A stretch of DNA of 64,000 nt, from assembly GCA_037444405.1 (NCBI GenBank), contig JBBIML010000006.1, positions 32,001-96,000 on the forward strand, in the 5' to 3' direction. Numbering within the stretch: position 1 is the first letter of the stretch; each line of letters begins with the position of its first letter. Shown in pieces: positions 9,449 through 58,357 of the stretch. The notes beneath the pieces were generated by a model, which saw only the letters and a list, made by a program, of their open reading frames with translations, had not been told where the DNA came from and searched no databases. This stretch comes from Armatimonadota bacterium (GTDB lineage Bacteria > Armatimonadota > Fimbriimonadia > Fimbriimonadales > GBS-DC). Position numbers and translations under genes: made by a program.

Positions 9449-9475
9449 ATACCCACTCTGTCGCGCCTCTCCTGC
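9449..9475 (-). promoter_or_regulatory. Sigma-H-like promoter motif upstream of NYN-era
   Basis: GCAGGA gaggcgcgacagagtgg GTAT (17-nt spacer). Confidence 0.7.
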
Positions 9476-9534
9476 TCGATAAAGGGCACAGAACAGCTCA
9501 ATCTTGAAACGGGTATACTGATTCCAATCCCGAG

Positions 9535-10698
9535 ATGAAGGTGTTCACGGCAGATCGGGCGGTGGTGGCGCTGGGGGAGATCAGCGGGCGCGTTCGGGTG
9601 GATGAGCGCACGAAGCGGCTGGTGCAGCGCCTGCGCAAAGGCGAGATCGCCGTTATTGCCCATCGCGATATCGATGTGCTGGCGGCGCGCGCATTAATTG
9701 AACGCGCGCCCCGCGCCGTCATCAACGCTGAACCCTCCTTCACGGGGCGGTTCCCCACCTATGGCGCCCTGCTGATTCTTCAGGCGGGTATCCCGATTCT
9801 GGACAGGGTGGGGCACGCCTTCTTTGAAGCGGTGTCGGAGGGTCAGCGGGTGCGAATCGTGGGCAGTCGCGTGATCGCCGAGAATGGCGTCGAGGCGCAG
9901 GGCGTGTGGCTGGACACGGACGCGCTTCAGCGCGAGATCGAAGCCACCCGGGAGCGATTGAGCGTGGAACTGCAGGCGTTCGCTGCCAACACGCTGGAGT
10001 ATCTCCAGCACGAGTGGAAGCTGTTGCTGGAGCCGCTGGCGCTGCCCGCGCTGCGCACACCCATTCGCGGCCGGCATGCGGTGGTGGTGGTGCGCGGGCG
10101 CAACTACGAGCGCGACCTGGACGCACTGCGGGCGTACCTGCGTGAAACACGCCCTGTGCTGATCGCGGTGGACGGCGCCGCCGACGCCTTACTGCAACGC
10201 GGGCTGAAACCCCATATCATCATTGGGGATATGGACAGCGTGTCGGAGCGGGCGCTGCGCTGCGGAGCGGAGCTGATCGCGCATGGCTATGTGGACGCCG
10301 ACCGCCCCTCGCCGGGCTGGGAACGGTGTCAGCAGCTGGGTCTATCGGCGCACCTGCTGCGCGCGCCCGGCACCAGCGAGGATGTCGCCATGCTGCTGGC
10401 GTACGAATCGGGCGCGGAACTCATCGTGGCGGTCGGCAGCCATTTCAGCCTGGAGGAGTTTCTGGAGAGGGGGCGAGCGGGCATGGCGTCCACGATGCTC
10501 ACCCGCATGAAGGTCGGCTCGCGACTGGTGGACGCCAAGGGAGTAAGCCTGCTGTTCCAGTCGCGTCGGTCGATGGGCGCGCTGGTGTGGCTCTTTCTGG
10601 CGGCGCTGGCGCCCATCGTCGTCGCGATCGCCCTCTCGCCCACGGGACGCTTCCTGCTCAAACTCATCCGCACCTGGTGGCGCGTCTGGTTCGGATAA
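9535..10698 (+). CDS. steA: SteA-like membrane-anchored protein (thiamine pyrophosphokinase-like domain)
   Basis: GRVRVDERTKRLV, IAHRDID, SFTGRFP, AFAANTLEYL, LIAVDGAAD, IIIGDMDSVSE, GTSEDVAMLLA, GMASTMLTRMKVGSRLVDAKGVS, C-terminal TM helix. Confidence 0.85.
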   Translation: MKVFTADRAVVALGEISGRVRVDERTKRLVQRLRKGEIAVIAHRDIDVLAARALIERAPRAVINAEPSFTGRFPTYGALLILQAGIPILDRVGHAFFEAVSEGQRVRIVGSRVIAENGVEAQGVWLDTDALQREIEATRERLSVELQAFAANTLEYLQHEWKLLLEPLALPALRTPIRGRHAVVVVRGRNYERDLDALRAYLRETRPVLIAVDGAADALLQRGLKPHIIIGDMDSVSERALRCGAELIAHGYVDADRPSPGWERCQQLGLSAHLLRAPGTSEDVAMLLAYESGAELIVAVGSHFSLEEFLERGRAGMASTMLTRMKVGSRLVDAKGVSLLFQSRRSMGALVWLFLAALAPIVVAIALSPTGRFLLKLIRTWWRVWFG

Positions 10699-10706
10699 GC
10701 GCAACG

Positions 10707-12453: not shown

Positions 12454-12480
12454 ACAGGAATAGCATCGTCCGCGTCGAAA
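12454..12480 (+). promoter_or_regulatory. Sigma-H-like promoter motif upstream of the TolC-family gene
   Basis: ACAGGA atagcatcgtccgcgtc GAAA; ATG 11 nt downstream with no SD. Confidence 0.6.
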
Positions 12481-12491
12481 GGCATATCCGT

Positions 12492-13775
12492 ATGAGCAGA
12501 CTTTTGAGAATCGCGAACGGGCTACTCTCTGGTGCGCTAACAATAGCGGCTTTCGCCCAGCCATCGTCGTTGAGCCTTCAGGATGTGTTGCGTCGGGCGC
12601 TGCAGTATAACGGCGATATTCAGTCGGCATTAGCGCAGCAGCGGGCGGCGGAGGCGCGACTGACTGCGACCCGTGCGAGCTTATATCCCAGCTTCGCGTG
12701 GGCGAGCAGCTCCACCCGCACGCGCCTGGAACAGGGCGGTACCACCTCCGAGTTCACCCAGCGACAGGGCGCGTTTACCGTCGACTGGCTGCTGTTCGAC
12801 GCCGGTCGGCGTGAGTGGCGCATTCGTCAGGCGTCGCGCTCCAGCGAGGCGACCCGAATGACGGCGCGCGCCACCATCCGCTCGCTGCTGTTCGAGACCG
12901 CCAGCGCGTATTACGAGGTGCTGCGCCGTCAGGAGCTGCTGCGCGTGGCGGACGAGTCGGTGCAGCGGGCGCAGACCCTGCTCGATGTCGCCCGCACGCA
13001 GGCGGAGGTGGGCACCGCGCCCGCTAAAGATGTGTTGCAGGCGGAAGCCGACCTCGCCAACGCGCGCGTGCAGCAGATTCAAGCACGAAACGCGCTGCGC
13101 CTCGCCGAAGCCGACCTCAAGCGGCTCATCGGCTGGGACGCCACCCAGCCGCTGCCACCGCTCCAGCGCGTCGAAAACCCGCCTGAACTGGGTCAGCCTC
13201 CCACGCTCGCCGAACTCTGGCAAAAGGCGCTGCAACAGCGACCCGAACTGCGCAGCGCCCGGCTGAACCTGCAGATTGCCCAGCTCGGCGTTGATCTGGC
13301 GCGCGTCGACACCATCGGGCAGATGCAGGTGAGTCTGAGCGGTTTCTATGAGTATGACCCGAACCGCCGCACGCAGGGGCAGCTGCTCTTTCGACTCAGC
13401 ACGCCCATTTTTGACGGCGGGCTGGTTCGGGCGAACCTGCGCGAGGCGCAAGCCGAGTACGACAGCGCCCGCGCCCGACTCCAGCAACTGGAACGCGACC
13501 TGTACGCGGAGGTGGAGAGCGCGCTGCTGCTGCGTCAGGAGGCTGCCGAGCGGCTGGAGGCGTCAAAAGCCGCGCTCGCCGCTGCCCAGCGCAACTACGA
13601 AGCCGCGCGCGACGCCCTGCAGGAAGGCGCTGGCACCATCGTCGAAGTGCTGACCGCCCAGCTCGCGCTCGTCACCGCCGAGACCAACCTCGTGCAGGCA
13701 ATCTATGACGCCTATATCGCCGACCTGCGCCTGAAACTCGCCATCGGCGAACCCCTGCCCGAAGAGCCGCAATAG
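12492..13775 (+). CDS. TolC family outer membrane efflux protein
   Basis: Signal peptide, two OEP repeats (ASAYYEVL, PIFDGG, GAGTIVEVLTAQ), LKLAIG C-terminus. Confidence 0.92.
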   Translation: MSRLLRIANGLLSGALTIAAFAQPSSLSLQDVLRRALQYNGDIQSALAQQRAAEARLTATRASLYPSFAWASSSTRTRLEQGGTTSEFTQRQGAFTVDWLLFDAGRREWRIRQASRSSEATRMTARATIRSLLFETASAYYEVLRRQELLRVADESVQRAQTLLDVARTQAEVGTAPAKDVLQAEADLANARVQQIQARNALRLAEADLKRLIGWDATQPLPPLQRVENPPELGQPPTLAELWQKALQQRPELRSARLNLQIAQLGVDLARVDTIGQMQVSLSGFYEYDPNRRTQGQLLFRLSTPIFDGGLVRANLREAQAEYDSARARLQQLERDLYAEVESALLLRQEAAERLEASKAALAAAQRNYEAARDALQEGAGTIVEVLTAQLALVTAETNLVQAIYDAYIADLRLKLAIGEPLPEEPQ

Positions 13776-13802
13776 GCAGGAATCGACCCGCCCGCGACGA
13801 AA
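13776..13802 (+). promoter_or_regulatory. Sigma-H-like promoter motif upstream of the sugar isomerase gene
   Basis: GCAGGA atcgacccgcccgcgac GAAA. Confidence 0.6.
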
Positions 13803-13805
13803 CCT

Positions 13806-13890
13806 GTAGCACGGGCATCCTGCCCGGGAACGCGCGAGTAGGGGCGCGGTTGCCGCGCCCGTACTGCTCGTAGTTCGGGCATCCTGCCCG
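13806..13890 (+). repeat. Cluster of three GTAG-REP-like palindromes (A-B-A)
   Basis: GTAGCACGGGCATCCTGCCCGGG (13806), GTAGGGGCGCGGTTGCCGCGCCCGTAC (13838), GTAGTTCGGGCATCCTGCCCG (13870); GTAG starts spaced exactly 32 nt apart. Confidence 0.85.
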
Positions 13891-13924
13891 CAGAACCAGA
13901 CCCTATCAGCGGAGGTAGGTGACG

Positions 13925-15001: not shown

Positions 15002-16894
15002 TTACTGCTGTGAGAGCGTGCTGCGCCGTCCGCCAGGGCGACGCAAGCCCTCCTCACCCAGCACATGCAGGAACACCAGGCACATCTCGTCGGTCGTCTT
15101 CTCGCCCCAGGTGACCACCTTTGGCGGACGGTTCGGATTGTTCGGGTTCTTCTCGGAGTTGTCGTAGTAGGCACGCACCTCCACGCGCGTGCCCCGCGGC
15201 AGGCGCACAGGTGTCTTGTAGTGATAGGTGTCCTGCCATCTGAAGTCCCAATCTTTGATCCAGATGAGCGGGATGGTCTTGCCGTCGGGCGTGTAGGCGT
15301 CCACCTTCATCTCGCGCCCGAGCAGGTGCATATGGGGCGTGATGGCGACCACATCCACATCGCGCGGTGCAATCCAGTAGGCGCGCACCTCGTGGTGCTC
15401 GGCGCCCGGCGGAATGCTGAAGAAGGGATTGATCAGCCAGGCGATGCCAATCGGCTGTGGGTTGGGCGTCTTGGCGAAGTAGAGTCCCACGCGCGTGCGG
15501 TCGCGCTCCGGCTTGCCTGTGCGATAGTAGTGAATCTGCAGCACAATATCGGAGCCTTTCGGCAGGCGATAGCCTGTGCCCTCCGGCAGCATCTGGGGCG
15601 AGAAGCCCGGCGCCCAGCCGCCCAGCATGCCAGCAGGGATGAACCCCGGCCAGCCGAACGCCCTGTAGCCCGGACCCGCGTCCGCCTCATCCAGCTTGCG
15701 AGCCGTGCCCGATGTGTCGCAGTAAACAATCACATGGTGAACCGTCTTGCGATTGCCCGGCTGGATGTCAATCGCCTGCACGAACATGTCACGGTCGAAG
15801 TTCGTGGGGATGACGAAGTGGCGGTATTCGTCGTCGCCTGTGGGACCGACCTCATACTCTTCGGGCATCTCCACAATCAGATCGGGCGGACCGAACGCCC
15901 AATCGTCGCTGAACTGGCGCGGCGGCGGCAGGTCGTTCGGCTCGCCTAACGGCGCACCCGACTCCACCCACTGTGTGATCAGTGCAATCTGCTCGTCGCT
16001 CAGTCGACGCTCACCCTTGAACTCGCCGTAGCCCGGCTCGGGCTTCCAGGGCGGCATCTGGCGTGCCTGCACATATTTGACAATCTCTTTGCGCCAGGTG
16101 TACACATCGCGGTAGGTCATTAGTGAGAAGGGCGCGACCTGACCAGGGCGATGGCACGGCTGGCAATATTGCTGAATGATCGGCGCGATATGCCGGGCGT
16201 AGGTGATGGGCGCGGACGCCTCCGCCTCATCTTTGAAATGGATGGTGCAGCCGAAGGTTTCGGTCGCGGCGGGCTTGACAGGCTTGCCCTTCAGGATTGC
16301 CTCCAGCGCGTTGCGCAGGTAGGGCGTGCGCACGCGGTCCTCGTAGCGGTTGTCATCGATCGCGCCCCGATAGCGCAGAACGCCCTTCTGGTCAATCACG
16401 AACGCCTGGGGGGTCATCGTGGCGCCGAGCTGGCGCGCGATCTTGCCATCGGGGTCATACACCACAGGGAATTTGAGCTGCCACGCCTGCACGCTCTGGC
16501 GTACCTCCTGCTCCGTGTCGTCATAGTTGGTGTAGATACCGATTATCTGCACGCCGCGTTTGGTATAGCTCGCATAAAGTTGATTGAGGCGCACAGCGTA
16601 GCGCTGGACGGCGGGGCACTTCGCGCCCAGAAAGACCAGCACCACGGGCGCCTTGCGTGTGAGCTCGTTCAGGCGGTAGGTGCGACCGTTCAAATCGGTG
16701 AAGGAGAGCGGCGGCACGCGCGTGTTGAGATTGACGGTGCTGGGCGATTCGGTCAGCACGCGGTGCTTCCTGCTCACCTCGCTCGGCGTCGTTGCAGCCC
16801 GTCGATTCGTTGCGTCACTATCCGTCTGCTGCGGCATCCAGAACGGAAACGCGCCCATCATCAGTGCCAGCCCAATCAGCCACGATGCCCTCAT
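15002..16894 (-). CDS. Exported redoxin + c-type cytochrome + copper type II (PHM/DBM-like) monooxygenase fusion
   Basis: Signal peptide from ATG 16894 (GGAGG RBS); AhpC/TSA-like FLGAKCP...ATMTPQAFVID...YRGAIDD; CQPCH; VHHVIV, QIHY, PHMH, DEMC. Confidence 0.85.
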   Translation of the reverse strand: MRASWLIGLALMMGAFPFWMPQQTDSDATNRRAATTPSEVSRKHRVLTESPSTVNLNTRVPPLSFTDLNGRTYRLNELTRKAPVVLVFLGAKCPAVQRYAVRLNQLYASYTKRGVQIIGIYTNYDDTEQEVRQSVQAWQLKFPVVYDPDGKIARQLGATMTPQAFVIDQKGVLRYRGAIDDNRYEDRVRTPYLRNALEAILKGKPVKPAATETFGCTIHFKDEAEASAPITYARHIAPIIQQYCQPCHRPGQVAPFSLMTYRDVYTWRKEIVKYVQARQMPPWKPEPGYGEFKGERRLSDEQIALITQWVESGAPLGEPNDLPPPRQFSDDWAFGPPDLIVEMPEEYEVGPTGDDEYRHFVIPTNFDRDMFVQAIDIQPGNRKTVHHVIVYCDTSGTARKLDEADAGPGYRAFGWPGFIPAGMLGGWAPGFSPQMLPEGTGYRLPKGSDIVLQIHYYRTGKPERDRTRVGLYFAKTPNPQPIGIAWLINPFFSIPPGAEHHEVRAYWIAPRDVDVVAITPHMHLLGREMKVDAYTPDGKTIPLIWIKDWDFRWQDTYHYKTPVRLPRGTRVEVRAYYDNSEKNPNNPNRPPKVVTWGEKTTDEMCLVFLHVLGEEGLRRPGGRRSTLSQQ

Positions 16895-26785: not shown

Positions 26786-28168
26786 ATGAAGCGTAAGGTG
26801 ATGTTCGGCACAGCGATTCTGTCGTTGATGCTGGCGAGCAAACTGCTTGCCAACGACCCGTTCGTGTACTTTGCAGGCAACCCTGCCAACTCCTGGTATA
26901 CTGTCGGTGGCACCTGCGACGCGCCGACACTAACAGCAAACTACCTCTACTTCATCTCCGGCGATGTAACCAGTGCTGGTCTCCCAGCGCGCTGGACAGC
27001 TCTGCCTTTCGAGCTGTGCCAGGCGACAACCTTCGACTCGATAGCCTACGCCCCTGCTTTCCACACGGGTGCGCCCAATCTGCGAGTGATTATCACCCCT
27101 GCTCGGATCGGCAGTGATGGACGCCCGGAACCCGACCTGAGCAATGCAATCTACGACCAGAACCTTGGACCGTCACCTGGTGATCCCCCAATACCTGGTG
27201 AAAAAGACGAGCCGATCCTGACCTATTATGGTGGCAGCGCCACCTTTCTTTATCTGCGCACAACCTCGTTAGGCACAACGCTGACCCTTAATCCGGGTCT
27301 CTACTTCGCGATTATTGTGGGCGACGAGGATTACACAACCTGCGGTCCTTTGGACAGCTATATCGCGCTGGGAATGGGTGCGCCAGGCGGACCGAAGCTC
27401 TACTACACGCCGCGCGGGACAGGTAGTAGCTGCACGGCTCCCACTGCCTGGCAACGATTCCGCTATAACCCGGCGACATTCCCCTGTGAGCGAATCCTGA
27501 ACACCGACCTTCCATGGCGCAATAGTGATCCCTTCGCTGGCACTCCTCCCTGGAATACGGGTCAGCACTGGAAGGATAATCACTCGCCCTACCTCTATCA
27601 CGGCGTGCTGGGATTCCGCTATTCAGGCGCTCAGGGCGGTAAAGTGGTTGGAACCGCTGTAACAGCCGATGCGCCCAGTCCATCCCCACCCACGAATGTG
27701 GAGGTTATCTTCTACAAGCCGGGTACCAAGCAGCGGGTCGCGCGGTTCAGTATGCCGACAGCTGATGGTCCCAACTACCCCATCGACACACCCATCGTGG
27801 CTGCCGGCACCTACGACATCGTGGTGCGCCCCATCTACTCGACGACCATCATTACAATTAACTGCCCTACCAACTTGTGCGTGACGAATGTGACCTTTGA
27901 TACGGAGACGCACTGGTTGGGCGTGCGCATCCCGAATGTGAATGTGAGTGGCACGGTCGATCTGGGTACCATCACCCTGCCCAATGGCGACACGAACAAC
28001 GACTTCATTATTGATGATGCTGACCTGCTCAATGTTCTGTTCGCCTTTGGTACGGACGATCCGTCCGCTGATTTGAACGGCGATAGAGTCGTCGACGATG
28101 CCGACCTGCTCATCGTCCTCTTCAACTTCGGCACGCAGGGTGAAGATGGCGATGAGACCTGTGGCTAA
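26786..28168 (+). CDS. Secreted protein with C-terminal dockerin-like duplicated Ca-binding motif
   Basis: Signal peptide MKRKVMFG...; C-terminal GDTNNDFIIDDADLLNVLFAFG / ADLNGDRVVDDADLLIVLFNFG; AAGGAGG RBS. Confidence 0.85.
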   Translation: MKRKVMFGTAILSLMLASKLLANDPFVYFAGNPANSWYTVGGTCDAPTLTANYLYFISGDVTSAGLPARWTALPFELCQATTFDSIAYAPAFHTGAPNLRVIITPARIGSDGRPEPDLSNAIYDQNLGPSPGDPPIPGEKDEPILTYYGGSATFLYLRTTSLGTTLTLNPGLYFAIIVGDEDYTTCGPLDSYIALGMGAPGGPKLYYTPRGTGSSCTAPTAWQRFRYNPATFPCERILNTDLPWRNSDPFAGTPPWNTGQHWKDNHSPYLYHGVLGFRYSGAQGGKVVGTAVTADAPSPSPPTNVEVIFYKPGTKQRVARFSMPTADGPNYPIDTPIVAAGTYDIVVRPIYSTTIITINCPTNLCVTNVTFDTETHWLGVRIPNVNVSGTVDLGTITLPNGDTNNDFIIDDADLLNVLFAFGTDDPSADLNGDRVVDDADLLIVLFNFGTQGEDGDETCG

Positions 28169-28185
28169 TCCCTGATCGGCTGTCG

Positions 28186-28221
28186 GGGGCAGAGGCTATC
28201 TGCTCTGCCCCGTTGTTTTTT
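28186..28221 (+). terminator. Intrinsic terminator
   Basis: GGGGCAGAG/CTCTGCCCC stem followed by GTTGTTTTTT. Confidence 0.75.
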
Positions 28222-28223
28222 AA

Positions 28224-28250
28224 GCAGGAATGCTGGGGCTGAGGAGGTAT
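28224..28250 (+). promoter_or_regulatory. Sigma-H-like promoter motif upstream of the pilin-like gene
   Basis: GCAGGA atgctggggctgaggag GTAT, immediately after a terminator. Confidence 0.7.
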
Positions 28251-28276
28251 ACTTTACAGATGGAGGTGCAGAGAAC

Positions 28277-29242
28277 ATGAGCAAGCGCGGTTTCACGCTA
28301 ATTGAGTTGCTGGTCGTGATCGCAATTATTGCCATTCTGGCAGCGATTCTGTTCCCGGTGTTTGCGCAGGCGCGTGAAAGCGCCCGCCAGATTACCTGCG
28401 CCAGTCGCTTCCATCAGGTTGCGCGCGCCGTGATTATGTACACGGGCGACTACGACACCACCCAGCCTCTAACGCAGTGGTTTGCCTCCTTCGCTGGTGG
28501 TGATAACTGCAACGATCGCATCCTTGCTCAACTGCTAATGCCCTACGCCAAGAGCTGGATCGTGTTCCGCTGCCCGTCGGATCCACAAGCAACAGATGAG
28601 ATCCTGGATAGATGTCCTCAAGACTCGAGCGAGGGACCCCCAACCCAGCAATGTATCCGTGAATATCGCTGGGCACTGAAAACCGATCTGGGCTATAACT
28701 ATGTCTATCTTTCTCCTATTTTTCGCTGGAGACAGGGGCCGCCTTTCTATGGCAATAAACCCGCGACAGACGCTCAGATCGGTCGACCTGCAGCGACCGT
28801 GCTGTTTGTGGATAGCCTGTGGTGGCGCGACCCTGTTACCCGACAGCCACTCTGTGGCGGTAACTGGATTGTGATGCCACCCTGTCGCTACTATCGCAAC
28901 GCTGCTGGTCAGGTGGTGGACAGCTTTACCATCGTGCGTCAGGAGTGTGATAGTCAGCGGGCGGATTGGTGGTACGATTACGCGGGCGGCAGTTGTGGTA
29001 TGGGAGCGCGTCCCGCCTGCTGGCGCCTGCAGACAGCCACTGGCTGGTACACCTGGATGGAGTTCGGCGGCTGCTGGCCGTGGCACCGACGCGAGCGAAT
29101 GATGGTGACCTTTGCGGACGGGCACACGAAACCGTTCACTCCTGCCCAGCTCACGGTCGGTTGCGATGCCCGTCCACAGTGCGGTGGCTTCATTCTGAAC
29201 CCGGAGCAGTATCTGTGGGACCTGGATGACTATGGCACATAA
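28277..29242 (+). CDS. Prepilin-type N-terminal cleavage/methylation protein, DUF1559 / H-X9-DG-like
   Basis: [46 protein letters not shown]-terminal [22 protein letters not shown]. Confidence 0.93.
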
Positions 29243-29257
29243 CTGGAGGACACGGCG

Positions 29258-29497
29258 ATGGAAATTCCGAAACCTGTGGCAATCGCCATCATTGCGATTG
29301 TTGTGGTGCTGGCGCTGGGGATAGGCTGGTACTTCTTTCTATCGGAGGGTAGCTCAGGGGGTGGTGCAAACGTGCCCTCTCATGCCTATCCTCAGCCGCA
29401 GAGCAACCAGCCCGGCGTGGAGGCTTATGGGGTGCAACCACCCAGCAATCAGCCTGCCCCCTCTGTCTCTATCCCTCTGCCCGGTAAGGGACGGTAA
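29258..29497 (+). CDS. Small single-pass membrane protein with Pro/Gln-rich tail
   Basis: GGAGG RBS; MEIPKPVAIAIIAIVVVLALGIGWYFF; directly downstream of the pilin-like gene. Confidence 0.75.
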   Translation: MEIPKPVAIAIIAIVVVLALGIGWYFFLSEGSSGGGANVPSHAYPQPQSNQPGVEAYGVQPPSNQPAPSVSIPLPGKGR

Positions 29498-29547
29498 GCG
29501 ACTGCCCAGGAAAGTATTACCAGCTGCACGGGCATGGTTCGCGTTTG

Positions 29548-29627
29548 CCCCTCCTGCAGGTTCCCCTCGCGAAGCAGGGGGGAACTGTGGCTCGGTCCCC
29601 CTGCTGACAGGAGGAACCTTACGGGGG
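29548..29627. repeat. Family D composite inverted repeat (REPIN/MITE-like)
   Basis: Outer arms CCCCTCCTGCAGGTTCC ... GGAACCTTACGGGGG enclosing two related hairpins GTTCCCCTCGCGAAGCAGGGGGGAAC and GGTCCCCCTGCTGACAGGAGGAACC. Confidence 0.65.
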
Positions 29628-29732
29628 TACAGGGCGATCTCCCATGCGTAGCCCTTTCTTTTGTTCGAACAGCCTCCCCCACCCCCTTGACAAACCCCTA
29701 CCCCCATCGGGTATTAATTAAGGCGCAAACGA

Positions 29733-29809
<77 letters not shown>

Positions 29810-29857
29810 CTTTTTTTTCGCCACTCCCGATTTCGCCCCTGTCGATCCCGCATTGAT

Positions 29858-29884
29858 GCAGGAATTCCCGCAAAAATGGGGTAT
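29858..29884 (+). promoter_or_regulatory. Sigma-H-like promoter motif upstream of the second dockerin-like protein
   Basis: GCAGGA attcccgcaaaaatggg GTAT (continues as GTATAAT). Confidence 0.7.
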
Positions 29885-29937
29885 AATAGGAACGCAGGGT
29901 ATCCATCCCCTGCAAGTCAAACGAGCGGAGGTGTGAG

Positions 29938-30960
29938 ATGATGAGACCCTTGCAGAAAGGCATACTGATAGTGGCGCTGATAGGGATGCTGGTGGCATTT
30001 GCGAATGCCCAGTCCTTCTTTGACGGCTTCGAGCCGCCCACTTACGCACCCGGTATTCTGACAGGTCAGAACTCCTGGTACAACCCTGTCCCCGCGTCCA
30101 GCACCGACTGGTCGGTCTATCTCTACTCTGGGCTGCCTGGCTGGCTCGGCTCGCTTGGCAGCAATCCTGGCGGCGGTCAACAATTTATCGCGGCGCGTAA
30201 GGATACACCCGGCTTCTTCCCACGCGCCCAGAAGGATTTCAACTGGGGCGCACGGACCATCTGGCTGGTGAGCTACGATGTGGCGGTGAACTTCGATCCG
30301 AGCGTGAGCGCCGATGGTCTCAACTACGATAACATCGGCTCCTTTTCCCTGCAACCAAGCGGCGCCTTCTACCGCTACTTCATCGACCTGTTCCAGTGGG
30401 TTAGTCCCCAAGTCACCCCAAACGATGGCTGGCAAATGACCTGGGTGGTGTCCGATTCGGGTGGTTCTGCATCGTTTATCGTGTCTTTTAACCCGCCCAA
30501 CCCCTTCCACGGACTTCAAATCAACAAGTGGTATCGTCGCTTCGTCGCGTTCAGGCTCGACGATAGCGATCCCAGCGCCCGGCATGTGGTGAAGGTTGGC
30601 ATCCGTGATCTGGAGACGGGTCAAACCTTCTCCACGCCCGTCGGTCCGACCCCTGACTTCCAATACTGGTATCTGATCAACTATAACACCGGGGACATTC
30701 CCACCGCGTTCCGCTTCTTTGTGGGTGGCGGCACGGGCACCAACGAAGGCAACATCCTCGCGGTGGACAATGTTGCCTTCACCGCCTTCAGCTTCGGCGA
30801 TGTGGACATGAACGGCTGCGTGGATGATGCCGACCTGCTGGCAGTGCTGTTCGCCTTCGGGAACACGGGAGCCTTCATGCCTGAAGACACCAACGGCGAT
30901 GGCACTGTAGACGATGCCGACCTGCTGAATGTGCTGTTTGAGTTCGGCAACGGCTGCTGA
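29938..30960 (+). CDS. Secreted protein with C-terminal dockerin-like duplicated Ca-binding motif
   Basis: Signal peptide ending ANA-Q, FFDGFEPPTY..G.LTGQNSW start, C-terminal GDVDMNGCVDDADLLAVLFAFG / EDTNGDGTVDDADLLNVLFEFG; GGAGG RBS. Confidence 0.85.
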   Translation: MMRPLQKGILIVALIGMLVAFANAQSFFDGFEPPTYAPGILTGQNSWYNPVPASSTDWSVYLYSGLPGWLGSLGSNPGGGQQFIAARKDTPGFFPRAQKDFNWGARTIWLVSYDVAVNFDPSVSADGLNYDNIGSFSLQPSGAFYRYFIDLFQWVSPQVTPNDGWQMTWVVSDSGGSASFIVSFNPPNPFHGLQINKWYRRFVAFRLDDSDPSARHVVKVGIRDLETGQTFSTPVGPTPDFQYWYLINYNTGDIPTAFRFFVGGGTGTNEGNILAVDNVAFTAFSFGDVDMNGCVDDADLLAVLFAFGNTGAFMPEDTNGDGTVDDADLLNVLFEFGNGC

Positions 30961-30982
30961 AGCCATCTGCCACTCTATGGGC

Positions 30983-32295: not shown

Positions 32296-32346
32296 CGCAA
32301 CGGCTGCATTATACCGCAATCAGGTACAATCTCTCGCGGTGAGAGA

Positions 32347-36748: not shown

Positions 36749-38031
36749 GACCCCATGTGGTGATTATCGGCGGCGGTTTTGGCGGCTTGCAGGCAGCGAA
36801 GGGACTGCGCGACGCGCCCGTGAATGTAACACTCATCGATAAGCGCAACTTCCACCTGTTCCAGCCGCTTCTGTATCAGGTGGCGACGGGCGGGCTGGGT
36901 CCTGCGGAAATCGCCGCGCCTATCCGCGCCCTGCTCAAACGTCAGCGCAACACGCGCGTGCTGAACGCCGAAGTGGTGGACATCGACCCGCAGACGCAAA
37001 CGGTCTATCTGCGCGAGGGCGAACCCATCCCCTATGACTACCTGATTCTGGCAGCCGGCTCCACCTATCACCACTTCGGGCACGAGGAATGGAGCCGTTA
37101 TGCGCCGGGCTTAAAGACCGTCGAGGATGCGCAGGAGATCCGTCGGCGTGTGTTGCTGGCGCTGGAGCATGCGGAGCGTGAAACCGACCCGCAACGCCAG
37201 CAGGAGTGGCTCACCTTCGTGATTGTGGGTGGCGGTCCGACGGGCGTCGAGCTGGCGGGCGCGCTGGCGGAGCTGGTGCGCGTCACAGTGCGCGGCGAGT
37301 ACCGTCAGTTTGACCCTGCCGCCACGCGACTCCTGCTGCTCGAAGCTGGACCCCGCCTGCTCCCAACCTATCCACCGAACCTGAGCGAGACCGCGCGACG
37401 GTCGCTCCAGCGGCTCGGCGTCGAGGTGCAGATGGGCGCGATGGTGACCCATGTGGGCGAAGAGGGCGTGCAATACACCTATCAGGGCGAAGCGGTGCAG
37501 GTGCGGGCGCGAACGGTGTTGTGGGCGGCAGGCGTGCGCTCCGTGCCGCTCGCCGAACGGCTTGCCGACCGCGCCAGCCTGCCCACCGATAAAGGTGGAC
37601 GCATTATCGTCAATCCCGACCTGTCGGTGCCGGGCTATCCGAACCTGTTCGTGATAGGCGACCTTGCCCATTATGCGCATCAGACGGGCACGCCCCTGCC
37701 CGGCGTGGCGCCCGTTGCCATACAGCAGGGCATCTATGTGGCGCGGGTGATCCGCGACCGCCTGCGCGGACGAACCCCGCCGCCCTTCCGCTATCGGGAC
37801 AAAGGCGATATGGCGGTCATCGGGCGCAAAGCCGCCGTCGCCAAAATCGGCAAACTGCAGCTGACGGGCTTCATCGCGTGGCTGGCGTGGCTCTTCGTGC
37901 ATCTGCTCTATCTGGTCGGCTTCGAAAACAAACTGCTCGTGCTGATCCAGTGGGCGTGGAACTACTTCACGCGCAATCGGCGCGCGCGGCTCATCCTCTA
38001 CTGCTACGAAACCCGCCCGAATCGCGTATAA
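36745..38031 (+). CDS. ndh: Type II NADH dehydrogenase
   Basis: [59 protein letters not shown]. Confidence 0.93.
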
Positions 38032-42897: not shown

Positions 42898-42924
42898 ATA
42901 GGAAGCCTGTACGCCGATTCCTGC
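42898..42924 (-). promoter_or_regulatory. Sigma-H-like promoter motif upstream of the GYD gene (variant -10)
   Basis: GCAGGA atcggcgtacaggcttc CTAT. Confidence 0.55.
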
Positions 42925-45842: not shown

Positions 45843-45869
45843 GTACGCTTTTTTATGCGGACTCCCTGC
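45843..45869 (-). promoter_or_regulatory. Sigma-H-like promoter motif upstream of the phosphoesterase (variant)
   Basis: GCAGGG agtccgcataaaaaagc GTAC; shares the CCTGCAGG palindrome with the comEA site. Confidence 0.5.
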
Positions 45870-45894
45870 AGGATTTGAAGAGAGTGTGTCGTAT
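45868..45894 (+). promoter_or_regulatory. Sigma-H-like promoter motif upstream of comEA
   Basis: GCAGGA tttgaagagagtgtgtc GTAT. Confidence 0.7.
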
Positions 45895-45912: not shown

Positions 45913-46647
45913 ATGATGCCCTCCATCTGGGATAAGCTGGACTGGAAAGAGAAGGCGTGGCTGATGGCGGTGTATGGCATCTCGCTGATGCTGACCGCGC
46001 TGATTGCATACAACATCGGGCGCGGCTCGCCGCCGATGGCGCCTTCAGAGACGCGCGACGCAGCAGCTCTTACCGACAGCTCTGCGCCCACGCCAAAAGA
46101 GCCAGCGAGCGATGCTGAGCTGTTGCCAGCGCCTTCGTCCAGCACGCCTGTTCAGCAAATCGATCTGAGCCAGCCGGCGGGTGCGACCATCAAGGTGCAT
46201 GTGGCGGGCGCGGTGAAGCAGCCCGGTCTCTATGAGCTGCCTGCGGGTAGTCGTGTGCAGGACGCGCTGCAAAAGGCGGGCGGCGCGAAAGCCGACGCCG
46301 ATACCGAGAGCCTCAATCTCGCCGAGCCGCTCAGCGATGGGCAAAAGGTGTATGTGCCGCATCGGGGTGAGACGCAGGTCGCCGAATCGGGCGCATCGGT
46401 CGCCGCACGCCCGCCACGAGTTAGAAGCGACGCATCGACCCCGACCGCCCGCTTCCCGCTCGATATCAACCGCGCCAGCGCGGCGGAGCTGGAGCTGCTG
46501 CCAGGCATCGGTCCCGTGCTGGCAGGGCGCATCGTCGAGTATCGCAAGCTGCGCGGGCGGTTCCAGTCGGTCGATGAGCTGCTGGATGTTCCTGGCATCG
46601 GTCCCAAGCGGCTGGAGCAGATTCGCCCCTATGTGGTGGTGCGGTGA
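45913..46647 (+). CDS. comEA: Competence DNA-binding protein ComEA
   Basis: TM helix, SLBB domain VHVAGAVKQPGLYEL...LNLA..LSDGQKVYVP, two HhH motifs LPGIGP / VPGIGP. Confidence 0.95.
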   Translation: MMPSIWDKLDWKEKAWLMAVYGISLMLTALIAYNIGRGSPPMAPSETRDAAALTDSSAPTPKEPASDAELLPAPSSSTPVQQIDLSQPAGATIKVHVAGAVKQPGLYELPAGSRVQDALQKAGGAKADADTESLNLAEPLSDGQKVYVPHRGETQVAESGASVAARPPRVRSDASTPTARFPLDINRASAAELELLPGIGPVLAGRIVEYRKLRGRFQSVDELLDVPGIGPKRLEQIRPYVVVR

Positions 46648-51045: not shown

Positions 51046-53931
51046 TTACTCCTTCGTGATTGTTTCGTCCAGGTTGAGCATCACATGGGCGACCATGGTG
51101 AGCGCGGCGAGGCTGGCGTCGTCGTTGCCGACGAGTTTGCGTGTCGCCTCCCGATTGGCGCGGTAGCGTTCGAGCATGCGCTCGTAGAGCTGGCGCAATC
51201 GGTTCAGCTCCTGTGGTTGTGGGTAGCGCGCGGTGCAGCAGCGGAAGCCGTACTGGATGGCTTTTTCGATGGAGCCGCGCCCCGCTTTCTGCATGCGTTT
51301 TGCCAGCCCCTGCGCCGCCTCCATATACACAGGGTCGTTCAGCAGCACGAGCGCCTGCAGGGGCGTGTTCGTGCGCGGGCGGTTGGCAGTGCAGACCTCG
51401 CGCGAGCTGGCATCGAACGCCACAAATGACGGATAGGGCGCCGAGCGCCGCCAGAAGGTGTAAATCCCGCGCCGATAGCGATCCTCGCCCTCGCTCATCA
51501 CCCAGCGGTCGGCGTTGAACGGGATGTCCCACACGCCTTCAGGCTGATAGGGGAACACGCTCGGACCGCCAATCTTGCGGCTCAACAGCCCGCCAATCGT
51601 CAGCGCGTTATCCCGAATCAGCTCGGCTTCGAGGCGATGGCGCGGTCCGCGGGCATAAAGCGTGTTCTTCGGGTCGCGCTCCAGCAGTGCGGGCGTGATG
51701 TGCGAAGATTGCCGATAGGTGGCACTGGTAACAATCAGTCGATAGATGGCTTTCATGCTCCAGCCGCGCTCCATGAACTCCACGGCGAGCCAGTCGAGCA
51801 GCTCGGGATGGGTGGGGTAGGCGCCCTGCGTGCCGAAGTTATCGCTGGTTTCGACCAGCCCGCGCCCGAAGCAGGCTTCCCACATGCGGTTGACCTGCAC
51901 GCGCGCGGTGAGCGGGTTCTCACGCGAGACGAGCCACTTCGCCAGCCCCAGCCGATTGCGCGGCGCATCGGGCGGGAAGGGATTCAGCACCGCTGGCGTG
52001 TCCGCCTCCACCGCCTCGCCCGGATGGGTGAACTCGCCCCGAACGCGAATCTCCGCTTTGAGGGGTCCGTTTGGCGGGTTGTCCTCCATCACGAGCGTGG
52101 TGGGGATTTGCGCCTCCAGCTGGCGTTTCGCTTCCTCCACCTCGCGCACCAGCAGGGCGTCGGAGCCTGACGCGCTGACGCGGAACCTCCCCAGCACATG
52201 CTGCTTCCAGCGCTGCGATTCGAAGCGCAGGGTCAGCTTCAGCGTGGCATCGCGCCGAACACGCACGGGTTTCTCAAACAGCAACCCCAGCTCGTGCGGC
52301 TCGCTCACGCGCGGAACGATTGCCCAGCCCTGCTCTTGTTGCGGCTCGGAGCGTGTCAGCACGCTGATATCGAAGCCGTCCTGCACGAAGTCAGCGAACG
52401 CCACGCGCAGGCGCAACGGCTCGCCATTCAGCGTGACCGACACACCCGTCAGAATGAAGTTGCCGCTGTCGGCACGCCCAGAGCCTTTCTGTGGGAAGCT
52501 CTCATCAGGGATGGCTTCAATCCGAATCGCCCGATAGCGCCCCGCTGGCAAACGCAGCTTGAGGTGATACACATCCTGGTCGGGCGTGTCGCCTTCCGCT
52601 TTGAGGGAGCCATCGGGTAGCGACTTCAGCTGGCTCCCCTTCTCCGCTTTGACCGCCAGCACGGATAGCGTTCGCCATTCGGGCGGATTCGGGTACCGCT
52701 GGCGCAGTTGCGCAAGGCGTTTTTCGAGGGCTTCCAGCTGGCGTTGCTGTTCGGGCGTGGGCGCCCGGATCTGGGCTTCCAGCCACTTCTCTTCACCGAC
52801 GCTCGCATCGCCCACAGGGTAAATCTTCGAGTTATTGAAGAACGCCAGCATCGCGTAGTAGTCGCGCTGGGTGAAGGGGTCGTACTTGTGGTCGTGGCAG
52901 CGGGCGCAGCCGAAGGTGATGCCCAGCCACACCGTCGCGGTGGTGTCCACCCGATCTACCAGCTTCATGAAGTGCGCCTCCGCCTGATCCACACCCCCCT
53001 CCAGATTCTGCATCGTGTTGCGGTGGAAGCCCGTCGCGATGCGCTGCTCCAGTGTCGGGTTCGGCAGCAGGTCGCCCGCAATCTGCTCGATGGTGAACTG
53101 GTCAAACGGCATATCTTTGTTGAACGCCTCAATCACCCAGTCGCGGTAGCGCCAGATGGAGCGTCGCAGGTCTTTCTCATAGCCGTCGGTGTCGGCATAG
53201 CGTGCCAGATCGAGCCAGATTCGCGCCTGACGCTCACCATAATGCGGCGACTGGAGCAGGCGATCCACCAGCCGCTCGTAGGCGTCGGGACGCTTGTCGC
53301 GTAAAAAGGCGTCCACCTCTTCGGGGCTGGGCGGTAGACCAATCAGATCGAGATAGACGCGCCGTATCAGCACCTCTTTAGGCGCTTCGGGCGACGGTTG
53401 CAGCCCTTCCTGCTCCAGCCGATGCAAAATAAACGCATCGATGGGGTTGCGCACCCATGCGCGATTTTTCACTTCGGGGATGGGCGGGCGTTCAGGCTTG
53501 ATGAACGCCCAGTGTTTGGCGTTCTCCGCGCCTTCGGGCCATTCCGCGCCCTCGTTGATCCAGCGTTTGATGGTCTCGATATGTTCGGGTGAGAGCGCGG
53601 TCAGTCCCTTCGGCATGCGGGGACCCAGCTCCTCGCCGCTAATGCGTTTCACCAGCAGGCTGGCTTCGGCGTTGCCGGGGATGATCACGGGTCCGCTGAC
53701 GCCGCCCTTGAAGGCGTCTTCGCGATTGGACAGGCGCAGACCGCCGTTGCGCCTGGTGGGTCCGTGGCAGGGGAAGCATGAGGCTTTGAAGATGGGCAGC
53801 ACCTCGCGGGCGAAGTCCACCCGGCGCTGGGTGGGTTTGGGCGCGGGCACAGACGCCTGCCACGCCAGCCCTATCAGCAGGGCAGGCAATCCACCATAGA
53901 GCCACCAGAACAGCGCGCCACTTTTCATCAC
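51046..53931 (-). CDS. Planctomycete cytochrome C + DUF1549 + DUF1553 (PSD1) protein
   Basis: CFPCHG, HWAF, NPIDAFI, WLDLARYADT, CARCHDHKYDP, NPLTARVQVNR, THPELLDWLA, NTPLQAL; start GTG 53931 or ATG 53928. Confidence 0.93.
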   Translation of the reverse strand: MMKSGALFWWLYGGLPALLIGLAWQASVPAPKPTQRRVDFAREVLPIFKASCFPCHGPTRRNGGLRLSNREDAFKGGVSGPVIIPGNAEASLLVKRISGEELGPRMPKGLTALSPEHIETIKRWINEGAEWPEGAENAKHWAFIKPERPPIPEVKNRAWVRNPIDAFILHRLEQEGLQPSPEAPKEVLIRRVYLDLIGLPPSPEEVDAFLRDKRPDAYERLVDRLLQSPHYGERQARIWLDLARYADTDGYEKDLRRSIWRYRDWVIEAFNKDMPFDQFTIEQIAGDLLPNPTLEQRIATGFHRNTMQNLEGGVDQAEAHFMKLVDRVDTTATVWLGITFGCARCHDHKYDPFTQRDYYAMLAFFNNSKIYPVGDASVGEEKWLEAQIRAPTPEQQRQLEALEKRLAQLRQRYPNPPEWRTLSVLAVKAEKGSQLKSLPDGSLKAEGDTPDQDVYHLKLRLPAGRYRAIRIEAIPDESFPQKGSGRADSGNFILTGVSVTLNGEPLRLRVAFADFVQDGFDISVLTRSEPQQEQGWAIVPRVSEPHELGLLFEKPVRVRRDATLKLTLRFESQRWKQHVLGRFRVSASGSDALLVREVEEAKRQLEAQIPTTLVMEDNPPNGPLKAEIRVRGEFTHPGEAVEADTPAVLNPFPPDAPRNRLGLAKWLVSRENPLTARVQVNRMWEACFGRGLVETSDNFGTQGAYPTHPELLDWLAVEFMERGWSMKAIYRLIVTSATYRQSSHITPALLERDPKNTLYARGPRHRLEAELIRDNALTIGGLLSRKIGGPSVFPYQPEGVWDIPFNADRWVMSEGEDRYRRGIYTFWRRSAPYPSFVAFDASSREVCTANRPRTNTPLQALVLLNDPVYMEAAQGLAKRMQKAGRGSIEKAIQYGFRCCTARYPQPQELNRLRQLYERMLERYRANREATRKLVGNDDASLAALTMVAHVMLNLDETITKE

Positions 53932-53940
53932 TGGGATATT

Positions 53941-53967
53941 ATACATCCGTCATAGCCCGATTCCTGC
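53941..53967 (-). promoter_or_regulatory. Sigma-H-like promoter motif upstream of PSD1-DUF1501
   Basis: GCAGGA atcgggctatgacggat GTAT (continues as GTATAAT). Confidence 0.7.
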
Positions 53968-56598: not shown

Positions 56599-56660
56599 CG
56601 TTGTTATCCCTCGATCCACTCTCAGATAGTTCTCTCCCGCGTTGGCAGATGCGCCCAATA

Positions 56661-58307
56661 TTATGGCACATGGGCGCGCCATGCCGTGCGCAGATGCGTT
56701 AGCAGCCCCAGCAGCAGTCCGACCGCCAGCCAGCCCATCCCGGCACCCACCATCACCTGAAAAGAATCGATGGAGCTGGCGCGGAGAAATCCCGATGTGC
56801 GAGACATTTCCCCGATGAAGTCCAGCAGTGCCATCGGGAACCAGCACCACAGGATGGGACCCGCATCTTCGAAACGGTCGGGGAACTCGCCAATCAGCAG
56901 CGCCTGCAGCAGAAGGGGCATAATCATGAGCGCAATGGCGAGCGTGATGGCGAACCAGCGGGCGACGCCCAGCCCGTGATGCCCCACCAGCGCGGATGCC
57001 AGTCGCGCCACGCCCCACAGCAGAACCCAGACCCCGTACAGATAGAACATCACCGTGAACGCCGCCATCTGCTGAGCCAGCGTGAGCGCTTTCCAGACGC
57101 TGAAGCTGCCCAGCACCAGGGCGCCCGACACAACGAGCCACAGGAGCGTGATATAGGGCAGTGCGCCCGCCGCCGATGCCCGAAACATCCGCCACAGATT
57201 GAAAACGCCATCGTCCACCATCGGCTGCTCGTCCCGCCTGCCAATCGGGGAGACCAGCAGCACAACGAGACCCATTATGCCCGCAATCAGCAGGATCAGC
57301 AGAACCACGAACTCAAGCCCGCCTCCGACTGTCCGAATCGCGGTTGAAAACCCGGCCGCCATCAGGTACGCATAAAGCCCCGCGACCACGAGCAGCTGGC
57401 GACGGAAGGAGGGCAGCACATCTTTGTCGTAGAGTCCCACCCGTCGCGCCGCGCCCGTCATCACCAGTCGCACAAACAGCAGGCACACCGCGAGGCTGAC
57501 CACCCACGCGGGAATCTGCATCGTGCCCAGCTTGAGGTAGAAGCCCGCCACCAGCGGCGCACTGAACGGGTTCAGTACACCGAGCGGCGCCAGCAGCTCC
57601 TGACCCGTTAAACCCGCACCACCTGAAACGGTCATCGCCAGGCTGAACAGCACAAAGGGGAGCGTTGCGCCGAGATAGAAGAAGCAGAGCAGGTAGCCGC
57701 CGAACACCGCCCACATCGAGCTGCGCGAGTATGCCGAGGTGAACAGCGCGACCGCGCTCAGGCACAGCCCGCTCAGTGCCAGCATAAAGTAGCTCTCCAG
57801 CACTTCGCCGAAGGTCGTGCCGCCTAACAGCACGCACACCGCGCTGGCGGGCAATGTGAGTGCCAGCAACAGCACCAGAAAGGCGAACGAGCCGACCAGC
57901 TTGCCCGTGAGCAGCTCGCGCGCGCTGAGCGGGGTCGTGAGCAGCAGATCAAGCGTGCGTCGCTCCCGCTCCTGCGTAATGGCGCCCGCCGTCAGCCCCG
58001 GCGCAATTAGCACAATCAGCGCGGTCAGCGTGCCGAAAATCACCCAGTAGAACTGTTGCAGATAGGTCTGGGCGCGATAGGGGTCCATCGAAATCTGGCT
58101 GCCGAGCGTGCCCATGTAGGCGATGCCCACAATCAGCAGCAGAAAGAGCAGATACAGCGCCTGCAGCCAGTAGGCGCGCGCCAGCCGCACGCGCACGCGC
58201 AGCTCCCGCGCCACCACCGGATTGCCCACCACCTGCGTGACGATGCCCGTCCCGTAGCGCCACCAGTCGCGCCACCACGACCGCCGCACAACCGTTGCAT
58301 CCGCCAT
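56661..58307 (-). CDS. ABC-2 type transporter permease-like membrane protein
   Basis: NPVVARELR, APGLTAGAITQERERRTLDLLLTTPL...GKL, many TM helices. Confidence 0.88.
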   Translation of the reverse strand: MADATVVRRSWWRDWWRYGTGIVTQVVGNPVVARELRVRVRLARAYWLQALYLLFLLLIVGIAYMGTLGSQISMDPYRAQTYLQQFYWVIFGTLTALIVLIAPGLTAGAITQERERRTLDLLLTTPLSARELLTGKLVGSFAFLVLLLALTLPASAVCVLLGGTTFGEVLESYFMLALSGLCLSAVALFTSAYSRSSMWAVFGGYLLCFFYLGATLPFVLFSLAMTVSGGAGLTGQELLAPLGVLNPFSAPLVAGFYLKLGTMQIPAWVVSLAVCLLFVRLVMTGAARRVGLYDKDVLPSFRRQLLVVAGLYAYLMAAGFSTAIRTVGGGLEFVVLLILLIAGIMGLVVLLVSPIGRRDEQPMVDDGVFNLWRMFRASAAGALPYITLLWLVVSGALVLGSFSVWKALTLAQQMAAFTVMFYLYGVWVLLWGVARLASALVGHHGLGVARWFAITLAIALMIMPLLLQALLIGEFPDRFEDAGPILWCWFPMALLDFIGEMSRTSGFLRASSIDSFQVMVGAGMGWLAVGLLLGLLTHLRTAWRAHVP

Positions 58308-58330
58308 CCCGATTCACACCCCTCTGCTCG

Positions 58331-58357
58331 ATTCGCCCACCGAGCCGTTGCTCCTGC
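58331..58357 (-). promoter_or_regulatory. Sigma-H-like promoter motif upstream of the ABC permease
   Basis: GCAGGA gcaacggctcggtgggc GAAT, exact match to GCAGGA-N17-GAAT. Confidence 0.75.

Follow-up and report, generated by a model that had tools for sequence, protein, structure and literature searches.

The 64,000-nt window analysed here (positions 32,001 to 96,000 of contig JBBIML010000006.1, assembly GCA_037444405.1, of an Armatimonadota bacterium; G000:C6:32001-96000 in the numbering used below) carries repeated copies of a two-box motif, GCAGGA-N17-G(A/T)A(A/T), in front of gene starts. We consider it probable that these copies serve as promoters read by an alternative sigma factor from the SigH (Spo0H) family, most likely by the SigH orthologue encoded elsewhere in the same genome. 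This reading builds on observations of the motif (its spacing, position and conservation), of SigH (its presence, orthology and DNA-reading residues) and of the co-occurrence of the two among related genomes. SigH has been treated as a sigma factor of Bacillota, associated with stationary phase, entry into sporulation and competence. The mechanism itself is known; what is new is the phylum, the expansion of the predicted regulon onto housekeeping genes at the level of a family, a proposed sigma cascade and a SigH paralogue.

Spacing and position of the motif

The preliminary description of the window had listed ten sites, and all ten were recovered with their coordinates and strands, seven as strict matches and three as degenerate forms that had already been written as such (Table 1). 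The strict pattern occurred eight times in the window, compared with 0.36 ± 0.61 matches expected from 100 dinucleotide-preserving shuffles, none of which reached eight. The same description had supposed that ten sites in 64 kb imply a very large regulon and had proposed scanning the genome for the spacer and for a weight matrix. Both scans were performed on the whole genome (2.68 Mb, 62.5% G+C, 98.9% complete), in which a self-trained dicodon open-reading-frame picker called 2255 genes covering 89% of the sequence; these gene calls are crude.

With both boxes held fixed and the spacer varied from 10 to 25 nt, the strict pattern was found 152 times at 17 nt and 67 times at 18 nt, and each of the 14 other spacers gave 20–42 matches. 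By our own crude gene calls, 116 of the 152 matches with the 17-nt spacer lay in the 10.8% of the genome that is non-coding, as compared with 2–9 matches there for the other spacers. The preference for 17 nt and for non-coding DNA, which had been expected from the ten sites, thus holds genome-wide.

An iterated weight matrix gave the consensus (A/G)GCAGGAAT(C)-N-(G)(G/C)CG(A/T)AT(C/A), with the 17-nt spacer far commoner than the 18-nt spacer. At a threshold of at least 14 bits, this matrix identified 486 sites in the genome, 303 of them intergenic, against 172–226 sites (48–81 intergenic) when the spacer was shifted by ±3 or ±6 nt and 36 sites (13 intergenic) in the reversed, not complemented, genome. 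The matches within genes, namely the total minus the intergenic ones, numbered 183, compared with 124–153 in the spacer-shifted controls. Subtraction of the controls from the 303 intergenic sites therefore leaves approximately 240 in excess. A same-strand gene start lies at most 300 nt downstream of 241 of the 303 sites, and 10–30 nt was the commonest distance (117 sites). Free upstream DNA of 40 nt or more precedes 1226 genes, of which 223 bear a site. These data suggest a regulon of about 240–300 predicted promoters, corresponding to about 15–18% of the genes with free upstream DNA, or about one gene unit in six, and the supposition of a very large regulon is borne out to that extent.

A SigH orthologue in the genome

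No sigma factor gene lies in the window, as had been noted from the sequence, and all matches to the sigma-70 family are located elsewhere in the genome. Sigma-70 region 2 was matched in 22 places, 21 of which exceeded the Pfam cut-off. By NCBIfam, the sigma genes comprise three group 1/2 sigmas (447, 348, and 301 aa), FliA, a SigB/F/G-like protein, about a dozen extracytoplasmic function (ECF) sigmas, and one SigH. The search for a SigH-like factor, which the preliminary description had called for, led to G000:C13:94511-95260, a gene outside the window that encodes a SigH/Spo0H-type sigma of 249 aa. This protein scored above the cut-offs of two NCBIfam SigH models, NF006148 (272.4 bits, cut-off 208) and NF006145 (255.9 bits, cut-off 212). 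When the SigH model was run over 14 control genomes, matches were obtained in B. subtilis and Thermotoga maritima only, and the cut-off was exceeded in one of them.

Close homologues of the protein are annotated as "RNA polymerase sporulation sigma factor SigH" of Armatimonadota, Fimbriimonadia, Fimbriimonas, and Chthonomonadales, which puts the organism itself in Armatimonadota; automatic annotation already gives these proteins the name SigH. It is 52–59% identical to the SigH of many Bacillota from named genomes. In an alignment with the SigH proteins of Geobacillus thermodenitrificans, Bacillus cereus, Clostridium drakei, Halonatronum, and a Selenomonadales genome, to which it is 53–55% identical, region 2.4 (TRQxITAxKTATRQKH) and the helix of region 4.2 (RHxKxIDNALQRxKxKL) are invariant. 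The closest solved structure is 3mzy, an "RNA polymerase sigma-H factor". The earlier proposal of a sigma-H-like factor behind the motif agrees with the presence of this gene, with its invariant DNA-reading regions, and with the geometry of AGGA, 17–18 nt, and GAAT; the reading of the sites by SigH is what these sequences predict.

The sigH gene is preceded by a sigmaA-type promoter, TTGACT-N17-TAAACT. Its neighbours are a KpsF-like SIS+CBS gene and an LptF/G gene, which differ from the context of sigH in Bacillota, and the Bacillota-type neighbourhood was not found around it. The Spo0A_C domain (PF08769) was not found in this 98.9% complete genome, and the same search matched the B. subtilis control. 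The link to Spo0A and sporulation is typical of spore-formers and does not define SigH, as non-sporulating Bacillota also have this sigma factor.

Distribution across Armatimonadota

To place the motif in its phylum, we considered 151 sampled Armatimonadota genomes, in which a SigH-like gene was called at E <= 1e-30 and strict matches with the 17-nt spacer (N17) were compared with a 20-nt control (N20). A SigH-like gene was present in 106 of the 151 genomes. The 105 SigH-bearing genomes other than that of the window contained 2531 N17 and 1823 N20 matches (1.39-fold), compared with 471 and 458 (1.03-fold) in the 45 genomes without a SigH match; the genome of the window itself had 124 and 14 in the same comparison. 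Only one SigH-less genome combined at least 20 N17 matches with a twofold excess over N20, and that genome is only 80% complete.

The motif is densest in the family to which the window belongs. All 15 other genomes of this family have 25–128 strict matches in 2.2–3.5 Mb, as compared with 4–28 in each of the ten members of the order outside it, and all 15 have kept the SigH orthologue, with 67–99% identity. Outside the family, five enriched SigH-bearing genomes together have 189 GAAT and 64 GTAT sites; three of the five, G142, G029, and G001, with one SigH-like gene each, are enriched mainly in the GAAT form. In four genomes of the order of the window (G166, G167, G168, and G170; families f41 and f42), each SigH match contains one in-frame stop codon, which may come from a match running on beyond the true gene end or from a broken gene.

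Separation from housekeeping promoters

The tRNA genes were examined as carriers of housekeeping promoters. None of the 49 has a GCAGGA-type site of at least 14 bits within 150 nt, five having weak sites of 9.0–12.5 bits, and 26 of the 49 have TANAAT, mostly 9–15 nt before the mature 5' end, as part of a GGGTATAAT-type -10. Therefore, the GCAGGA class appears to be an alternative class and not the housekeeping one, and the reading of the motif as a housekeeping promoter was rejected on these tRNA data. The most enriched upstream hexamers in the genome are GGTATA, TATAAT, and GTATAA, and (t)GGGTATAAT is the top enriched upstream word. The 243 intergenic copies of GTATAAT align as a-t-G-G-G-TATAAT, with no strong -35. 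TTGAC-N19-TANNNT is also enriched at its spacer (59 matches vs. 10–25). The general -10 of the genome is thus an extended (a)(t)GGGTATAAT, with 706 intergenic copies of TANAAT and 243 of GTATAAT; examples in the window are 29879-29887 and 53941-53947. The helix (S/T)RERVRQLE of region 4.2 reads TTGACA, and all three group 1/2 sigmas retain it in its canonical form; group 1/2 sigmas with an altered reading of the -35 were rejected as candidates on the basis of these conserved helices.

Two -10 forms occur within the GCAGGA class, namely GCGAATC, at 51 intergenic strict sites, and (T)GG-GTAT, at 42, which often continues as GTATAAT. Only the GTAT sub-class overlaps the TATAAT -10. When GAAT was held fixed, GCAGGA alone stood out 17 nt upstream, with 72 copies (expected 9.3). 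When GTAT was held fixed, the hexamers exactly 17 nt upstream were GCAGGA with 52 copies (expected 6.1), TTGACA with 19 (1.0), and TTGACT with 15 (0.7).

The shared register of GCAGGA (52) and TTGACA/T (34) before GTAT(AAT), and the existence of about 18 sites that join GCAGGA to a perfect GTATAAT, would fit an explanation in which GCAGGA is bound by an activator or repressor at the -35 position of sigmaA or group-2 promoters and is not itself a sigma -35 element. The inverted partner CCTGC points in the same direction: of the 303 intergenic sites, 23 have it at most 17 nt upstream of the -35 and 30 have it in the spacer directly after the -35, as compared with 6 that have it within the 17 nt past the -10. 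We give this explanation very little credence, since the larger sub-class has GCGAATC, without the TAnnnT of sigmaA promoters, and keeps GCAGGA at a constant distance of 17 nt, and such rigid coupling of two boxes is the signature of one sigma. The absence of GCAGGA from tRNA promoters and the TTGACA-reading helices of the group 1/2 sigmas argue in the same way. A separate reading of the motif as a hairpin or palindrome was rejected; TCCTGC is present in the spacer of just 8 of the 303 sites, and CCTGC, at approximately 10% on either side of the -35, is a minor feature.

Points against SigH as the reader and a possible second SigH

Several points weigh against the assignment of the motif to the SigH orthologue. 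Many SigH-bearing Armatimonadota show little or no enrichment, including G039, G138, and G065 of the same order (N17 vs. N20 matches of 13/16, 5/11, and 5/4, respectively); therefore, the presence of SigH does not explain the size of the regulon. The difference between SigH-bearing and SigH-less genomes (Mann–Whitney p 0.0009) is overstated, as are the cross-genome statistics in general, because kin are not independent of each other. With the TIGR02859 (spore_sigH) model, the SigH protein obtains 259.3 bits, which is below the cut-off of 294.8. Approximately 40% of the strict sites have GTAT, many of them running on as GTATAAT, the general -10; some are therefore probably dual promoters or hybrids, and part of the GCAGGA set may belong to sigmaA or to both sigmas. 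The counts also rest on crude gene calls, and the shifted controls keep 48–81 intergenic matches, so that about a fifth of the 303 sites may be false. Finally, the genome encodes a SigH paralogue that is confined to the family in which the motif density jumps, and it is a better correlate of the expansion than the orthologue.

This paralogue ("SigH2"; G000:C15:14751-15335, minus strand, about 195 aa, outside the window) is a divergent member of the SigH family, which matches the SigH models at 117 bits, below the cut-off. It is present in 14–15 of the 15 other genomes of the family, G153 and G157 having partial matches, and outside the family only the orthologue was matched, at 35–44% identity. 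The longest open frame at this locus (483 aa) extends far upstream, into the apparent antisense of another gene. Should the paralogue be the sole reader of the motif or share this role with the orthologue, its arrival would explain the large regulon of the family. It keeps the core of the region 4.2 helix, KxVDNALxRIRRK, which makes a similar -35 plausible, and it differs in region 2.4, which makes another -10 possible; two -10 sub-classes, GCGAATC and GGGTATAAT, are indeed present. We nevertheless regard this as unlikely, while keeping the paralogue as a co-candidate. The three genomes outside the family that have a single SigH (G142, G029, and G001) are already enriched in GCAGGA-N17-GAAT. 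In G164, which is 96% complete, the paralogue was not found at E <= 1e-15, and yet this genome has 46 strict matches, 15 of them with GTAT. The ratio of GAAT to GTAT does not follow the presence of the paralogue, and a division of the two forms according to the paralogue was dropped as no clear link was seen.

Predicted targets and their conservation

The genes downstream of the 150 highest-scoring matrix sites were searched with Pfam. The preliminary description had inferred that a sigma-H-like factor drives a large share of the envelope, export, and competence genes. Such genes are present, and the site of comEA is conserved, but they do not make up the main part of the list, which has rpsA, rpsP, and dnaE among the top 150. 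The pilus and competence part consists of ten pilin-like N_methyl/DUF1559 genes, three T2SSE ATPases, PilM, and ComEA; the sugar-related part, of six GFO_IDH_MocA oxidoreductases and three xylose-isomerase-like proteins. RpsP, RpsA, PrmA, GreA, DnaE, LigA, SMC, FtsK, ParA, Tdk, Lon, LpxB, RapZ, SpoIIM, and SPOR and SLT proteins are also among the targets, as are histidine kinases, PSD1/PSCyt proteins, both larger RpoD-type sigma genes, and many genes without a Pfam family. N_methyl genes have a site more often than genes overall (13 of 45 vs. 266 of 2255; Fisher p = 0.0014), and this excess is weaker against genes with free upstream DNA (p = 0.05).

The conservation of individual sites differs between targets. 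At comEA, 12 of the 16 family loci have a site of at least 16 bits at 17–30 nt from the start, with unrelated spacers, and the other four score 0.7–11.1 bits. Outside the family, three of eight comEA loci, all in SigH-bearing genomes, have a site of at least 14 bits at 27–30 nt; in G009, a genome that gave no SigH match, the comEA locus reaches 3.4 bits. At rpsA, 15 of the 16 family loci score 17.5–27.5 bits and that of G154 scores 13.7 bits, whereas none of the ten loci outside the family reaches 14 bits. Therefore, comEA looks like the older target and rpsA like a gain specific to the family. Both rpsA (C2:65-1585 and C14:63180-64700) and rpsP (C3:903-1178 and C9:6428-6703) occur twice in G000, with identical promoters and with one copy on a very short contig, which is probably assembly redundancy and not gene duplication.

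Six sigma-family genes have an upstream site, namely those of the 447-aa and 348-aa sigmas and four small, divergent sigma-like genes with strong GCAGGA-type sites (L018, L019, L020, and P0122; C9:49764-50450, C6:175604-176182, C26:21611-22171, and C13:58036-58692 in G000). P0122, the gene at C13:58036-58692, is divergent, shares 39% identity with SigH in region 4, and gave no transposase match; another candidate for a sigma region 4 gene, on C11, proved to be a NarL-type response regulator. When the SigH gene and its paralogue were scored for an upstream site, none was found.

It could be asked whether another alternative sigma reads the motif, either one of the ECF type or one of these four sigma-like proteins. 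The promoters of ECF (group 4) sigmas are of the GGAAC-N16-17-CGT type, and the GGAAT in the -35 and the CG(A/T) in the -10 of the present motif resemble them loosely; both classes have two boxes, a G/A-rich -35 with GGAA, and a short -10 with CG. The genome has about a dozen ECF genes, and the strong sites (22.7–27.9 bits) before the four sigma-like genes are readable as autoregulation. We hold this alternative to be very unlikely all the same. L019 and L020 are each found in just 5 of the 15 family genomes, and the motif has expanded in all 15; on account of this patchy occurrence, these two ECF-like proteins were rejected as the cognate sigma. None of the ten ECF genes that were scored has an upstream site of at least 14 bits, the best reaching 8.2 and 12.3 bits, and neither of the two best candidates, L019 and L020, whose distribution was followed, accompanies the motif throughout as an autoregulated cognate ECF. 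In addition, the AAC core of ECF promoters is absent, the AGGA-17/18-GAAT geometry fits SigH exactly, and hundreds of promoters, those of rpsA and dnaE among them, would make up a regulon of a kind not known for ECF sigmas.

A wider claim can be built on the two SigH proteins together. The phylum-wide orthologue and the family-specific paralogue might form a duplicated pair that acts as a second principal transcription system, driving about a fifth of the transcription units, among them genes for ribosomal proteins, replication, and chromosome segregation as well as both RpoD-type sigma genes and the lesser sigma-like genes; the two would share the -35 GCAGGAAT and divide the -10 forms GCGAATC and GGGTATAAT between them. 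We put this forward as a doubtful possibility. If true, it would make SigH an ancient, Terrabacteria-wide factor that predates endospores and is not an invention of Bacillota, and it would give the operon-poor Armatimonadota a means to coordinate scattered genes.

Proposed mechanism and comparison with known systems

In the mechanism that we propose for SigH, region 4.2 of the sigma would read the -35 box (A/G)GCAGGAAT, and region 2 would read the -10 box (G)CG(A/T)AT, 17 nt or less often 18 nt downstream. Transcription would start 7–10 nt past the -10, leaving mostly short leaders of about 5–25 nt; a search of RNA sequencing runs with positions 27001-37000 of the window listed no run that contains this sequence. 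The reader would be the orthologue at G000:C13:94511-95260, and its promoter class would have expanded in the family of the window to about 240–300 promoters of pilin, type IV pilus, comEA, sugar oxidoreductase, and housekeeping genes. With six other sigma-family genes as targets, SigH may act as a second general-purpose sigma that stands above a sigma cascade. The binding of the sites by SigH, the positions of the transcription starts, and the conditions of activity are what we infer from the motif and the protein.

The consensus of B. subtilis sigma-H is RnAGGAwWW-N11-12-RnnGAAT; the sigma is orthologous, and the two boxes and their spacing are the same as here. Two further parallels are that sigH lies behind a sigmaA-type promoter and that the gene of the principal sigma is a target (sigA P3 in B. 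subtilis). The predicted regulon differs in being about five times larger, in including ribosomal-protein and replication genes, and in having no sporulation context. In Staphylococcus aureus, SigH controls competence genes, and the SigH regulon of S. aureus and Listeria monocytogenes is small and cryptic. The placement of comEA behind a SigH-type promoter, kept across several Armatimonadota families, and the sites at 13 of the 45 N_methyl genes are similar to these systems, with the difference that fewer than half of the targets here are competence or pilus genes.

SigH promoters of a comparable kind were defined by differential RNA sequencing (dRNA-seq) in Sporomusa sphaeroides KIAC, with -35 AGGA, -10 GAAT, 17–18-nt spacers, and 322 transcription start sites, 16.1% of all (PMC12456013). 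This regulon is the second-largest after that of SigA, compared with 48 genes in B. subtilis, and the SigH of Listeria is named together with competence genes (PMC12456013). S. sphaeroides, a member of the Negativicutes and thus of the two-membraned Bacillota, resembles the present case in the boxes, the spacing, the share of promoters, the broad targets that reach into core metabolism, and the outer membrane of the host. It differs in being a spore-former of the Bacillota with a regulon defined by dRNA-seq, whereas the present one belongs to an Armatimonadota genome without a Spo0A_C match and is known in silico; moreover, the -35 described here, (A/G)GCAGGAAT, is longer and nearly invariant, and the family-specific paralogue is a feature of the present case.

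In Galperin 2012, sigH appears only among Bacilli and Clostridia (PMC3533761), and the sigma genes named in the Fimbriimonas genome paper are rpoD, rpoE, and fliA only (PMC4072686). Armatimonadota genomes have been described as "disorganized" and rich in sigma factors (PMC4959169). Our literature search on SigH or its promoters in Armatimonadota found no report. The present data place a true SigH orthologue, together with its predicted promoter, in a non-sporulating, outer-membrane-bearing phylum and supply a concrete predicted regulon for a group of bacteria that is difficult to cultivate. They bear on the origin of SigH, which may be older than endospore formation or may have been transferred, and on how such "disorganized" genomes coordinate dispersed genes. 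In addition, the matrix predicts promoters and short leaders, which is of use for annotation and for genetic tools in Armatimonadota.

Sites in the window

The sites in the window are collected in Table 1. The gene labels given in the preliminary description agreed with Pfam, except for that of the gene behind the site at 29858, whose label "dockerin-like" was not accompanied by any Pfam match.

Table 1. Predicted promoters and other motif matches in the 64-kb window, with scores from the genome-trained matrix. Gene identities are by Pfam.
Position	Strand	Predicted feature	Match	Score (bits)	Gene downstream and remarks
2065..2091	-	eleventh start-proximal site, GCAGGG-N17-GTATCAT		18.5	51 nt before AMP-binding (acyl-CoA synthetase-like) gene 473-2014; absent from the preliminary description
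9449..9475	-	SigH-type promoter, GCAGGA-N17-GTAT	strict	18.4	NYN-domain gene (GTG 9417 after GGAGG), then era (Era-type GTPase)
12454..12480	+	SigH-type promoter, degenerate -35, ACAGGA-N17-GAAA	degenerate	18.6	TolC/OEP gene (ATG 12492)
13776..13802	+	SigH-type promoter, GCAGGAATC-N-GAAA	strict	24.0	xylose-isomerase-like TIM-barrel gene at 13919 (AP_endonuc_2); 117-nt leader
16747..16773	-	match inside coding region	strict	20.9	absent from the preliminary description; not counted in the regulon
28224..28250	+	SigH-type promoter, GCAGGAAT-N-GGTATAC	strict	22.0	pilin-like N_methyl gene (ATG 28277); 27 nt to start codon
29858..29884	+	promoter, GCAGGAAT -35 with GGGGTATAAT -10	strict	25.2	gene 29938/29950-30960; no Pfam family found
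42898..42924	-	SigH-type promoter, degenerate -10, GCAGGAATC-N-CTAT	degenerate	19.4	GYD-domain gene (GTG 42871); 27 nt to start codon
45843..45869	-	weak SigH-type promoter, GCAGGG-N17-GTAC	degenerate	15.2	metallophosphoesterase gene (Metallophos, MetallophosC, MetallophosN)
45868..45894	+	SigH-type promoter, GCAGGA-N17-GTAT	strict	22.1	comEA 45913-46647 (HHH_3 and SLBB)
53941..53967	-	promoter, GCAGGAATC -35 with GTATAAT -10	strict	25.7	PSD1/PSCyt gene (PSD1, PSCyt2, PSCyt1), then DUF1501 gene
58331..58357	-	SigH-type promoter, GCAGGA-N17-GCGAATC	strict	22.3	ABC-2 type permease gene (ATG 58307, ABC2_membrane_2); 24 nt to start codon

Judged from its letters, the predicted promoter at 29858..29884 is a hybrid, in which a SigH-type -35 is joined to the general -10 of the genome. 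The strict match inside a coding region at 16747..16773 is probably a chance occurrence or an internal promoter.

The divergent predicted promoters of comEA and the phosphoesterase gene stand back to back (45843-45894), and their -35 boxes overlap by 2 nt, forming CCCTGCAGGA. The 117-nt leader of the sugar-isomerase-like gene, which extends from the TolC stop (13803-13918), contains two direct copies of GGGCATCCTGCCCG on either side of a G+C-rich hairpin, GGGGCGCGG-TTG-CCGCGCCC; this region could form a leader structure or terminate transcription of the TolC gene. At the TolC gene (12480-12494) and the PSD1 gene (53927-53941), the -10 box lies approximately 11–14 nt before the likely ATG, and the transcripts of these two genes would therefore be leaderless or nearly so.

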